Shown here: positions 9,211 to 57,649 of the stretch, piece by piece
Position numbering within the stretch: the stretch's first letter is position 1
Layout of the letters: every line of letters begins with the position of its first letter
Source of the DNA: Octopus vulgaris
Lineage: Eukaryota
Direction of reading: 5' to 3'
Length of the DNA stretch: 64,000 nucleotides
NCBI GenBank assembly: GCA_951406725.2
Contig: OX597824.1
Coordinates: 57,660,001-57,724,000 of the forward strand
The notes under the pieces: model-generated
The model's database searches: none
What the model was told of the DNA's origin: nothing
The model's input: the letters and a program-made list of their open reading frames with translations, nothing else
Program-made: the position numbers and the translations under genes

Positions 9211-10701
9211 ATAGGAAAAGGAAAGATCCAAGGAAGGGAAGACGGAGGAAGAAAATTGCCTACGGTACACACGCGGTCATACATAATTATATATATGTTT
9301 ATATATATATACATATTTATATATATATATATATATATATATATATATATATATATATATATATATATATAGATGAGAATACTATCTTCATCAGCCAAAC
9401 ATATACCACGACAACATTTCAGATGTTACCACATTAATGCCAATACACTCGACTGAAACGCCGAAACGCGGAGGAACAAGCTATGGCAGGAGATAGTCAA
9501 TAATGCATCTTATCCCTGCGGCTGATCAGAAAGAAAGAAAGAAATTTAAGTTAGGAAAAGAAAGATGGCCGATTATCACGTGCTAGCAACGAGAGAGCAA
9601 AGGCAAAAGAATGTGGAAGAGAGAGGGACAGAGAACAACGAAGGGAAGAAGAATAGAATTAGATAAAGAAAAATCCTTATCTTTATCTTGAAAAATCTGA
9701 AACCGACGCCGGTCTCACATTATCCTTTTCTAGGTATTTCATCTTTCAGATGTTCTCCCTGGAGGTAAGACAATTTTTTTCAAGTTTGTTGCACTCACGC
9801 ATTTTTGCTAGTACATACGCGGTGAAGCTATACATTAGCGTCGTATTATTACGTTCGCCATATATACATAGACATAGACATATATTTATATATATATATA
9901 TATCGATGCGACACTTATCCTATCTCTCTCTCTGTTTCTCTTTCTTTATCTAATACTATTCTTCTCCACTTCGTTGTTCTCTGTCCCTCTCTCTTCCACA
10001 TTCTTTCGCCTTTACTCTCTCGTTGCTAGCACGTGATAATCCGCCATCTTTCTTTTCCTAACTTAAATTTCTTTCTTTCTTTCTGATCAGCCGCAGAGAT
10101 AAGATGCATTATTGACTATCTCCTGCCATAGCTTGTTCCTCCGCATTCAGCAGCTTAACTCGTTCAGGCTTAGTAGCCCTTCCTGTTTATTTTCCCCGTC
10201 CTGTTTTTGTTACCAACTTTGACCCTCCGACAACGTATCTTGTCACGAATTGCTCGAAATACAAAGTAGAAAAACAGCCGACAACTGATGAAGGGTCATT
10301 TTTTTATGTCTTGTTTTCCATTTGTTTCTTTCGTTGTTCGCAAACAAGTTCGTATTCCATTTTTTCGTATTTCATGTTTAAGTTCTGTGGGGTCCAGTGC
10401 CGATACATGCTTCTGTATATACATATATATGTACATATATGTAAGTATGTATGCATATATATTATATATATTTATATTTTCTTTATATTGTTATATATAT
10501 ATATATATATAAATGTTATATATATATATGTATTTATATATATATATATATATATATATATATATATATATATATATATATATATATATATATACATACA
10601 TAATAAACATATATATATATATATATATATATATAAACACATATATATAAATATGATTTTTTCCCTCCGTCTACCCTTCTTTGGATCTTTCCTTTTCCTA
10701 T

Positions 10702-10736
10702 GTTTCTGACGAAGAGCTCAGCTCGAAACGTTAAAC
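10702..10736 (+). ncRNA. Minimal type I hammerhead ribozyme motif
   Basis: GTTT-CTGACGA-A-GAGC(TCA)GCTC-GAAAC-GTT-AAAC; stem I GTTT/AAAC; stem III reduced to the ACGT palindrome. Confidence 0.75.
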
Positions 10737-11196
10737 CCTCCTTCTTTCCTTCTTTCCTGAGCGTCCAATAATACTATACTTGTTCCACGTCCTAGCGTTG
10801 TTGTGTTTCCTCTTTGTGTTTTCATGTTTGGATTAACTATATATATACATATATATATAATTTCGTTATATATATATATATTTATAATTTCGTCATAGGT
10901 ATAAATATACCATACACAAATATAAAAAATGGAGGAAAAATGATGCTGAATTAAACATTAGAATTATATATATATATATATATATATATATATATATATA
11001 TATATATATATACATACACATACATACATACATACATACTTACATACATACATACATACATACATACATACATACATACATACATACATACATACATACA
11101 TACATACATAGTTGGAATTTACAAATAAAGAAAAGACGAAGACAGGTGTATAAACAAACAGGTGTATTAGTTTAACGCTCGGGAAGGTGAGAAAGT

Positions 11197-11232
11197 TTTT
11201 TTACTTTTCGAACCTACGCTCTTCAGTAGAAA
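11197..11232 (-). ncRNA. Degenerate minimal hammerhead motif in a PLE-type module (~11110-11260)
   Basis: Minus strand: TTTCTA-CTGAAGA-GCGTAGGTTC-GAAA-AGTA-AAAA. Confidence 0.45.
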
Positions 11233-11271
11233 GAACACGAGAAAATAAACAGAGAGACTAAAAAAGCTGAC

Positions 11272-11627
11272 ACTCCGACGGTTACGACAACGAGAGATCC
11301 AGTTGATCCGATCAACGGAACAGCCTGCTTGTGAAATTAACGTGCAAGTGGCTGAGTACTCCACAGACACGTGCACTCTTAATGTAGTTCTCGGGAGATT
11401 CGGCGTGACAGAGTTCGTGACAAGGCTGGCCCTTTGAAATAAACGTACAACAGAAAGATGAATAAAGAGTGAGAGAAAGTTGTGGTGAAAGAGTACAGAG
11501 GGTTCGCTACACAGCCCCTCGTGGAACTTGAGGTATTTTCGCTCAATAAACACTCATAAGATCCTGTCTGAGAATCGAAACTGCGATCCTACGACCGCGA
11601 GACCACTGCCCTTACCAGTTGGGCCTC
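11272..11627 (-). mobile_element. tRNA-derived SINE, family C
   Basis: Same body (CCAGTTGATCCGATCAACGGAACAGCCTGC...) and tRNA-like head as 53680-54058. Confidence 0.85.
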
Positions 11628-11769
11628 CACCTTTATATACATATACATACATCCATACATATATATAAATTCTCCCTATATATATATATATATATATATA
11701 TATATATATTTATGTGTATATATATTATTTATACACACACACACATATACATATATACTTATCCTTTTA

Positions 11770-12145
11770 TTTTTTATTCTTTTATTCGTTTCAGTCATTT
11801 GAGTGCGGCCATGCGGGAACACCGCCCTTAGTCGAAGAAATCGACCCCAAGACACATTCTTTTTAAGCCTAGTACTTAGAGTATCGATCTATCTTTTAAG
11901 CCTAGTACTTAGTGTATCGATCTATCCTTGTGTGACGTAAACATATCAATATCGGATATCAAGCGATGGTGGGATACAAACAGACACACACAAATACAGA
12001 CACACACATATTCGACGGGATTCTTTCAGTTTCCGTTTACCAAATCCACTCAAAAGGCTTTGTTCGGCCCGAGCCTATAGAAGAAGATGCAACGCAGTGG
12101 AACTGAACCTGGAACCATGTGGTTGGGATGCAAGCTTTTTACCAC
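11770..12145 (-). mobile_element. SINE family A with an internal ~31 bp tandem duplication (~11860-11925)
   Basis: Reverse-complement match to 17249-17672; TTTTAAGCCTAGTACTTAG.GTATCGATCTATC occurs twice. Confidence 0.8.
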
Positions 12146-55322: not shown

Positions 55323-55929
55323 TTATATATATGATACTCAGCGTTTGTGCCTATCTCATCTGCTACAACGAAAATCATGCTGAAAATCAAAGGTTTGTTT
55401 AGTATTACAGTGCACATCTCACGAGCCAATATTCTCGAAGAGGCTCTCTGTATATTTGCTATCCCTGACTACTTCATCCAAGGAAATAGTAAATGTTGCC
55501 TTAGTGGTTAAAGAATTTTGGATGCGTGACACGAGAAGGCAAAATGTAATGGTGGTTCTATGTTACCAATTTATAATCTTGGGGGAAACAATTGCTAATT
55601 TCGTAAATATTGGGAAACAATAATTGCAAAACTGTTACTGTTTCGGCAACGGTTGAGAAAGTTATACAAAAAACATCTATCTATCTATCTATCTATCTAT
55701 CTATATCTGTTTATCTATCTTTCGACATATATATACACACTTTGAAGCACGCACATACGTGTGTACGTACGCGCGTATATATGTATATATGCATGTATGT
55801 ATATATGTATGCATGTACGCCTGTATGTGTGTGTGTGTATATATATATATATACATATATATATATACATATATATTTATATATATATACATACATACAT
55901 ATATATATATATGAATTTTTTTTTTTTTG

Positions 55930-56250
55930 AGCACTCCGTCGGTTACGGCGACGAGAGTCCCAGCTGATACGATCAACGGAACAGCTTGCTCGTGAAATTA
56001 ATGTGCAAATGGCTGAGCATTCCACAGACACGTGTACCCTTAACGTAGTTCGCAAGGAGATTCAGCGTGACACAGAGTGTGACAAGGCTGGCCCTTTGAA
56101 ATACAGGTACAACTCACTTTTGCCAGCTGAGTGGACTGGAGCAACGTGAAATAAAGTGTCTTGCTCAAGGACACAACGCGTCGCCGGGAATCGAACTCAC
56201 AACCTTACGATCATGAGCCGAATGCCCTAACCACTAAGCCACGCGCCCTC
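55930..56250 (-). mobile_element. tRNA-derived SINE, family D (different head, family C 3' body)
   Basis: Minus head GGGCGCGTGGCTTAGTGGTTAGGGCATTCGGCTCATGATCG...GAGTTCGATTCC plus GTGTCCTTGAGCAAGACAC; 3' ~170 bp shared with family C. Confidence 0.85.
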
Positions 56251-56668
56251 ACGAATATGAATCTATATATGAATATATATATGTGTGTGCTTACAAATAG
56301 CATATACATTACGCTATTCAATTTAAACATTACTTTTTAAATTAAATTTTGTTTTAGGATTTATGCTATAATGATCTTCAATACACATTTCGATGATGCT
56401 TATAAAACTGTTAGTTTCTTTATACACAGCTTATCTATCTGTCTATCTATCTATCTATCTATCTATCTATCTATCTATCTATCTATCTATCTATCTATCT
56501 ATCTATCTATCTATCTATATATATATATATATATATATATATATATATATATATAGAAATTCGGGGTGAGTACTTGATAATTATAAGCACCTGTGTATAC
56601 CGTTTGGTGGCGTAGGTGGTGGAGTAAATTGATCAAAATAAAAATAAAAACATGAGGCGAAGGATTCA

Positions 56669-56746
56669 GCGGTACATATGTTTCGGGCCTTTATTAGACA
56701 GATTTATAACAAAGTATAATGTATGTCTGTGGCCTTCTTCAGCCGT
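56669..56746 (-). ncRNA. Hammerhead H1, inverted copy
   Basis: Reverse complement of 56891-56968 with one stem I change (ACGG). Confidence 0.8.
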
Positions 56747-56890
56747 GCACAACAGCTTCCACAAGGACATGTGTTACATCAAAAATTCTTGGTTGGGGAC
56801 GCAAATCCTCTGTCGTACGTGAACGAGAGGATTTGCATCCCCAACCAAGAATTTTTGATGTAACACATGTCCTTGTGGAAGCTGTTGTGC

Positions 56891-56968
56891 GCGGCTGAAG
56901 AAGGCCACAGACATACATTATACTTTGTTATAAATCTGTCTAATAAAGGCCCGAAACATATGTACCGC
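56891..56968 (+). ncRNA. Type I hammerhead ribozyme H1
   Basis: GCGG-CTGAAGA-AGGCC...GGCCC-GAAAC-ATAT-GTA-CCGC. Confidence 0.85.
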
Positions 56969-57649
56969 TGAATCCTTCGCCTCATGTTTTTATTTTTTAT
57001 ATATATATATATATATATATATATATATATATATATATATATGCATACATGGGTACAGGACATCAAAAAAACCGTCAACGAAATGAGAAACGAGACAGGC
57101 AACATAAAGAACAATACCTTCATCAGTTGTCCCCTGTTTTATCAACTCCACCTTTCGAAGGTGTGTGTGTTGTCCGCACAACATCACTTGACAACCGATG
57201 CTGATATGTTTACGTCCTCGTAACATAGCGAAGTAAAAGAAACCGATAGAATAAGTCCCGGCTTCGATTTGCTCGACTAAAGGCGGTGCTCCAGCATGGG
57301 CGCAGACTGAAACAGGTACAAGAATAAAAGAGTAAAATAATATATATATATTTGATTTTTTTGATTTTTTCAGTTTCAGCTCATGAGCTGTGGCCATGGC
57401 CGACTTACTACCAATTTAACAACCTAAAGGCAAATTTAGAGACGTCACTAAAATGTCAGAGGGTACTAAGTGGTACCGACATTGCAAGAAATAAGAGTCA
57501 ATAGCCACAAATGCACTATCCTAATAACTGACAAAACGAGATAATTTCGCTAGCGGTCGTATCCAGGGTATAAGAGTACGTGTGCGTGTATATGCGTTTA
57601 TGTATTCATATGTATGTATATACAAATATGTATATATATACTATTACAA

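Follow-up and report, generated by a model that had tools for sequence, protein, structure and literature searches.

Sequence evidence for a predicted pseudoknotted type-SGC hammerhead ribozyme in probable Naiad fragments of Octopus vulgaris

A 64,000-nucleotide stretch of the Octopus vulgaris genome (GenBank assembly GCA_951406725.2, contig OX597824.1, positions 57,660,001 to 57,724,000, forward strand), here called the window and numbered from its first letter, contains scattered copies of a motif in which GAAA is followed, after a spacer, by CTGANGA. These are two core boxes of the hammerhead ribozyme. A sequence-only reading had described five copies, here A to E, as type II-like modules closed by an outer stem; their motif strings, strands and spacers (22, 25, 25, 26 and 26 nt, respectively) are all found as it reported. 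We analyzed whether and how these copies form a hammerhead.

Hammerheads are composed of block C (CUGANGA), block G (GAAA) and block S (the cleavage site), so that types I, II and III have the orders CGS, GSC and SCG (Eckert et al. 2023, PMC10085705). In the same paper, the remaining orders, SGC, CSG and GCS, are the non-circular permutations, which are pseudoknotted. Judged by its sequence, copy B has the features of a type-SGC hammerhead, a non-circular permutation in the order site, GAAA, CUGANGA. The elements of B and the other copies, including D′, an inverted twin of D, are as follows.

10235..10296 (+): copy B, complete type-SGC hammerhead core with a predicted cut between 10239 and 10240; the sole match of the strict six-order descriptor
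10235..10244 (+): copy B, block S, located by pairing; stem III strand 10235–10238, H17 (C10239), stem I strand 10240–10244
10245–10251 (+): copy B, 7-nt linker from block S to block G, from the pairing map
10252..10262 (+): copy B, block G, from the descriptor scan; stem II strand 10252–10255, GAAA 10256–10259, stem III partner 10259–10262
10280..10296 (+): copy B, block C; stem I partner 10280–10284, CTGATGA 10285–10291, unpaired A 10292, stem II partner 10293–10296
10201..10226 (+): copy B, upstream strands complementary to the spacer (10201–10208 and 10216–10221) and to the strand after A9 (10220–10226, 7 bp)
10297..10408 (+): copy B, T-rich 3′ tail, running to (TA)n
32675..32860 (+): copy D′, beginning with its own stem I strand (32675–32679) at the junction with the inverted D; 7-nt linker; tail to (TA)n
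32526..32676 (−): copy D, inverted 5′-truncated twin with intact core boxes and without block S
32148..32320 (+): copy C, second subfamily, 5′-truncated, GACA for GAAA, flanked by (TA)n on either side
57043..57162 (−): copy E, second subfamily, 5′-truncated, two of four stem II pairs, tail to (TA)n
9384..9424 (−): copy A, both boxes present, probably no family member according to profiles, scan and identity

On both strands of the window, the pattern GAAA-N22-26-CTGANGA occurs six times, against 0.75 ± 0.90 expected (100 first-order Markov resamples; maximum 4). Four of the matches are copies A (9384), B (10252), D (32626) and E (57116), and the other two, at 25508 (+) and 20434 (−), look unrelated to the family. 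Copy C is outside this count, having GACA instead of GAAA. The mutated inverted twin of D that had been mentioned does exist at 32687 (+), and its two core changes are GAAG and CTGATAA. The family thus defined comprises B (10252, +), C (32149, +), D (32671, −), D′ (32687, +) and E (57162, −), which fall into two subfamilies, are 53–86% identical in pairs over their first 50 nt, and have in common a T-rich tail ending at (TA)n. The embedding of the modules in (TA)n is confirmed, and the element reaches on both sides beyond the bounds that had been drawn around the motif.

A profile of the five members recovers just these five in the window, all at E ≤ 4e-19, with no other match below E = 1.3; because the five match by construction, this is informative only on the lack of further copies and on the failure to recover copy A. 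A full-length profile likewise has no further window match below E = 0.3, and the region upstream of B (10148–10250) has no other copy in the window. Copy A, which had been counted as a member, is 35–53% identical to the others and is probably unrelated. It was rejected because A-U replaces G10.1-C11.1 and its only block S candidates are rich in G-U pairs, the best of those upstream lying 32 nt away and being equalled by 74 of 2000 shuffles.

The window was scanned for all six orders of blocks C, G and S, with relaxed and strict settings. The relaxed scan gave 13 rows, none of them GSC. The strict scan (stem I ≥ 5, stem II ≥ 4, stem III ≥ 4, span ≤ 90) gave copy B in the order SGC as its single match and none in 60 Markov-resampled windows, a null that is not blind, as the thresholds were chosen after B was seen. 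Copy B has all core nucleotides (CUGANGA, GAAA, U16.1 and an H17 that is not G) along with stems III, I and II of 4, 5 and 4 bp. Stem II consists of two G-C and two G-U pairs, and 17 nt separate the stem III partner from the stem I partner. In block S, which lies 7 nt ahead of block G, 9 of 9 pairs are Watson-Crick. Such a block is unique among 127,980 positions, and it is equalled by 4 of 2000 shuffles of the upstream region.

That the spacer has no room for stems I and III had been noticed correctly. The reason is that the strand they pair with, the block with the cleavage site, sits 5′ of GAAA; the order is therefore S-G-C, a cis-acting non-circular permutation. This position of the missing partners, together with the lack of a GSC match, overturns the type II order that had been assigned. 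The proposal of a non-canonical hammerhead derivative stands as to its form, but a trans-acting partner is unnecessary for B, all three stems of which can pair in cis. In B–E, the closing outer stem begins only after one unpaired A; the 6-bp version drawn for copy E uses GA of the core box, and the hammerhead register keeps just two of its four pairs.

Copies other than B lack block S wholly or mostly. Their core boxes are intact in D and E, and are changed in C (GACA) and D′ (both boxes). D′, too, carries a stem I strand, spaced as in B and with one compensatory change relative to it (C-G vs U-A). Over three stem II pairs across the copies, 14 of 15 cells are paired, G10.1-C11.1 is present in all five, and so is the unpaired A after A9. 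When the partner strands are slid, pairing falls from 94% to 41–67%. By eye, the stem II partner, directly following CTGANGA, could fold into a local hairpin in all five copies, D′ included, and block G could form a hairpin with a 5-nt loop in C, D, D′ and E; these are possible inactive alternative folds.

A possible origin from Naiads, a clade of Penelope-like elements (PLEs), had been raised, and Naiads are the best candidate hosts, given the (TA)n context, the inverted twin and short matches to cephalopod Naiad cores. Craig et al. 2021 (PMC8557442), in the parts available, report no canonical hammerhead in Naiads, flag core-only cases (‘HHR_core’, ‘HHR_half_core’) that include Naiad_Ovul and Naiad_Esco, and fit no structure to these cores. 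There, insertion into (TA)n and an inverted 5′-truncated twin are traits of Naiads and PLEs; both are present in the window copies and neither is specific to Naiads. Two 11-mers of the window match only cephalopod Naiad cores, Obim/Ovul at two places and Esco at one place, in the supplement of 584,047 characters; they were chosen non-blind, after the matches were seen. Taken from these similarities, Naiad membership of the window copies is probable.

File S5 of Craig et al. was read by eye at every unbroken CTGANGA and over about 300 nt of the 3′ end in 53 of 54 consensi, a reading that may miss motifs split by line breaks further upstream. Candidate non-circular hammerheads were found in the 3′ untranslated region (UTR) of 18 of 54 Naiad consensi, seven of type CSG and 11 in the SGC order with a split block C. 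Clean CSG cases are in seven of eight nematode consensi (1_Nbra, 2_Nbra, 3_Nbra, Hcon, Hpol, Asuum and one Pristionchus family, Ppac or Parc), having a stem I of 4–6 bp, a stem II of 4–5 bp, a stem III of 6–12 bp, a linker of 2–5 nt from block S to block G, and an extra I–II helix. The SGC-order cases are Bfor, 3_Chem, Amil, Aacu, Anas, 2_Movir, Plae, EuTe, Obim, Ovul and Esco. In all 11, the stem II partner and an extra-helix strand lie upstream of block S, and most have one more helix that closes directly after A9. Bfor (with a stem I of 2 bp), Aacu and Esco fit imperfectly, and since the three Acropora consensi are nearly the same, as are the two Octopus ones, the independent cases number fewer than 11. 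Six consensi bearing CTGANGA (Smim, Ptep and four Darwinula families) could not be fitted and were scored as misses. Linkers between blocks S and G are 1–8 nt across the 18 consensi. Stems differ in sequence between Naiad families yet pair, which is covariation by inspection and not a statistic.

Other conserved motifs were seen during this reading. The 3′ ends of Naiad-1_Movir, Mgal, Bpla, Mphi, Scon and Mmer (File S5) have conserved 3′ UTR motifs. A different conserved, pairing-rich motif, possibly another ribozyme, is at the 3′ ends of CGi, Sglo, Olur, Tgra, Pmar, Skow, Pfla and 2_Chem, and is thus common to oyster, hemichordate and one hydrozoan Naiad. The motifs of the first group look twister-like, which would suggest that Naiads exchange ribozyme classes in this place.

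We consider it likely that copies B–E are 3′-terminal fragments of a Naiad-type PLE, in two subfamilies inserted into (TA)n, whose 3′ UTR contains a cis-cleaving S-G-C hammerhead. The order would be a cleavage-site strand, a short linker, a stem II strand with GAAA and a stem III strand, a spacer, and a stem I strand with CUGANGA, the unpaired A and a stem II strand. Its three helices would cross, making two pseudoknots, yet build an ordinary hammerhead core. By analogy with validated SGC RNAs, the Naiad transcript would assemble the core in cis, with block S folded back onto the other two blocks, and cut itself about 16 nt upstream of GAAA, between 10239 and 10240 in B. The short 3′ cleavage product would retain the 3′ end of the element, and its reverse transcription would generate copies beginning at the site or slightly downstream of it, like C, D, D′ and E.

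The 5′ ends fit such reverse transcription of a short 3′ cleavage product. The start of copies C, E and D is about 5–9 nt ahead of GAAA; that of D′ is 16 nt ahead, no more than 2 nt from where the inverted D ends. Only B extends further upstream than 16 nt. This pattern rests on three independent events, and the D′ junction is ambiguous. For Naiads more widely, we consider it moderately likely that active non-circularly permuted hammerheads are carried across animal phyla, including an undescribed split-block-C wiring with a helix closing directly after A9, that other Naiads have other ribozyme classes in the same position, and that short mobile 3′ fragments owe their 5′ end to the cut. From their consensus sequences, the carriers would be nematodes for CSG, and cephalopods, cnidarians, a ctenophore, an acanthocephalan and a crustacean for the SGC order.

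Several points weigh against the cis-cleaving S-G-C hammerhead of a Naiad. Of the five copies, B alone is complete, whereas C, D′ and E show visible damage in the core or in stem II. Covariation in the window is not significant, with one compensatory and three one-sided changes among five sequences, two of which cover block S (equalled by 257 of 500 shuffles). Between the spacer and downstream sequence, pairing (6–7 bp drawable) is no better than in shuffles in any copy (105–608 of 1000), so the I–II interaction helix of type SGC is not demonstrated here, and this helix was dropped as not above composition. Nested minimum-energy folds lack the full core, because nested folds cannot display crossing helices, and the folding is no better than that of shuffles (z −0.27). 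At the D′ junction, the ambiguity is such that the 5 nt before its stem I strand also fit three of four stem III positions.

In copy B itself, stem II with its two G-U pairs competes with the 7-bp upstream pairing. The coverage of the complementary upstream strands, taken as a set, is not exceptional, being reached by 76 of 6396 window stretches, and the strands are possibly peripheral helices or competing folds. Also upstream of the core, a stretch of 13–14 nt at 10220–10234 (+) breaks what would be a 9-bp stem III; it contains a direct copy of the stem I partner and a complement of the strand after A9, and could switch the ribozyme off.

The Naiad side of the reading meets objections, too. 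Three of the five window motifs searched have no Naiad match, and the cephalopod Naiad consensi place the stem II partner upstream, with a split block C, unlike B as read here. No Naiad open reading frame (ORF), which would be marked by an N-terminal GIY-YIG domain together with CxC and DKA motifs, was found in the window, in which the 120 PLE proteins used (of 164 homologs) match only 57654–59315. Moreover, Frangieh 2024 (PMC11167929) found hammerhead cleavage dispensable for a Poseidon PLE in vitro, with none of the reads beginning at the site. Rfam scans had no hammerhead family among the matches listed (150 of 412 in one scan, all 33 in a narrower scan), a negative that is uninformative because the narrower scan also missed canonical minimal motifs at 9184 and 10706.

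The 7-bp upstream pairing raises the possibility that B is the same ribozyme with the same cut site, but wired with a split block C as in Naiad_Obim, Ovul and Esco, so that the strand after A9 pairs with 10220–10226 and the stem II partner lies upstream. Seven Watson-Crick pairs (−11.2 kcal/mol, compared with −1.5 for the downstream stem II) speak for this wiring, which is that of all 11 readable SGC-order Naiad consensi. Nevertheless, B has no clean upstream partner for 10252–10255. The sole candidate, 10229–10233, has one bulge and is only 1 nt from the stem III strand, apparently too short a distance to span stems II and III, while stem II as formed with the downstream strand has those 14 of 15 cells paired. 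We thus consider a split block C in B improbable. Equally unlikely in our view is a non-catalytic, hammerhead-shaped fold or relic serving as a recognition signal, as had been suggested, or as a priming signal for the Naiad reverse transcriptase or endonuclease. The core changes in C and D′, the mobilization of four of five copies without block S, and the dispensable cleavage of the Poseidon element would all agree with it. However, damage is expected in old copies, and the core boxes, U16.1 and a non-G H17 are retained in B and in Naiad consensi across phyla.

The remaining alternatives change the block order. Copies B and C each have a block downstream of CUGANGA that offers a stem I of 5–6 bp and a stem III of 3 bp, as a type GCS hammerhead would, alone or as a second site. 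Such blocks are equalled by 235 (B) and 166 (C) of 2000 shuffles, and D, D′ and E have no downstream block with both stems. The pairing is composition-driven, and type GCS is very improbable. The order of GAAA before CUGANGA would fit a type II hammerhead or a trans-acting half ribozyme, and canonical type I motifs with similar GCTC-GAAA ends in the window could have left chance debris of two such motifs. The empty GSC result, the cis pairing of B, and a spacer length kept across copies of 53–86% identity make these origins highly unlikely.

Type SGC is the validated one among the non-circular orders of Eckert et al. 2023 (PMC10085705), with support being weaker for CSG (two similar sequences) and GCS being doubted (one sequence). 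Type-SGC RNAs (HRIMA-1 and variants) came from metatranscriptomes, with no genome of a known organism, and cleave in vitro at 0.007–0.19 per minute. Copy B is like them in its S-G-C order, all core nucleotides, crossing stems I–III and a short linker between stems I and II. It differs in lying in animal genomic DNA, in a retrotransposon tail, and in having the PLE-type unpaired A after A9; its linker is 7 nt instead of about 3 nt, and the I–II interaction helix is not demonstrated in it. Type CSG, described from two similar metagenomic sequences, has the same cyclic block order as the window copies, which are themselves not CSG, and matches the seven nematode Naiad consensi. The split block C breaks the assumption of an uninterrupted block C in the available text of Eckert et al.

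The window copies are like the Naiads of Craig et al. 2021 in (TA)n insertion, an inverted 5′-truncated twin, both core boxes in the 3′ UTR and local similarity to the Obim, Ovul and Esco cores. They are unlike them in that the window family is none of the consensi available from that paper and in that the ORF is absent from the window. An unpaired base after A9 and G10.1-C11.1 are traits of PLE hammerheads (Cervera and de la Pena 2014, PMC4209133, in the parts available). Copy B has both, together with the terminal location of the minimal type I PLE hammerheads. Whereas those have the C-G-S order and a palindromic stem III of 1–2 bp and need dimers, B has a 4-bp stem III in cis and pseudoknots.

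A full-text literature search, with most subscription papers outside its coverage, found no paper that reports SGC or CSG hammerheads from Naiads or from the genomes of animals. A whole-word search for SGC, CSG and hammerhead gave Eckert 2023 only, and its supplement (PMC10085705), in the parts available, has no match for Octopus, Acropora or Metazoa, although rows giving only accessions would not show. Neither a 2026 preprint on animal retrozymes (10.64898/2026.07.22.740005) nor PMC13725137, in their available parts, makes such a link.

If our reading is true, the puzzle of Naiads thriving without canonical hammerheads would be resolved, and the unusual pseudoknotted order may explain why they were thought to lack hammerheads. 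The non-circular permutations would gain a first home in known genomes with a biological context, and type CSG would gain the covariation that it lacked. An architecture outside the six-order scheme, the split block C, would be added. Pseudoknotted hammerheads would then be abundant in animal genomes, and no longer a rarity confined to metatranscriptomes.

Among the surrounding elements, the ORF at 57654–59315 (+) is a broken PLE remnant, in which a CxxC linker comes after the reverse transcriptase. A GIY-YIG-like motif is C-terminal in all homologs in which the pattern found it (13 of 13), from the 120 of 164 used, so the remnant belongs to a C-terminal-endonuclease element, which would be Neptune-like judging by the CxxC linker. 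As a parent of copy E, it was rejected for its opposite strand, its C-terminal endonuclease and the degenerate canonical hammerhead that it has downstream, at 59673.

Minimal type I hammerheads of other families, canonical in their C-G-S order and with an unpaired A and a palindromic stem III, lie at 9184–9206 (−), 10706–10728 (+) and 11206–11226 (−). The first two are in an inverted module pair, and the last is degenerate. Copies A and B lie symmetrically outside a 207-nt, 96% inverted repeat (9465–9671 and 9941–10147), each downstream of one arm. Another type I family, in which stem II has a long insert and stem III is palindromic, is at 31759 (+), 56736 (−) and 56895 (+); two copies of it form a 97% palindrome at 56640–56997. 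Near-identical CTGACGA motifs at 33269 (+) and 34572 (−), which might fold as type I hammerheads given either a variant GAA box or a long stem II, are in a 99% inverted repeat (33167–33641 and 34208–34681). An ORF fragment at 34991–35308 (+) has no Pfam match; by eye, it resembles a Hydra-clade PLE endonuclease.

Finally, a broken ORF like that of a DNA transposase, with an HTH_psq domain, is at 4747–5868 (+), and fragments like reverse transcriptases of non-LTR (long terminal repeat) retrotransposons are at 40062–41235 (+), 21415–21991 (−) and 44373–44654 (+), with a weak RVT_1 match in the first only.

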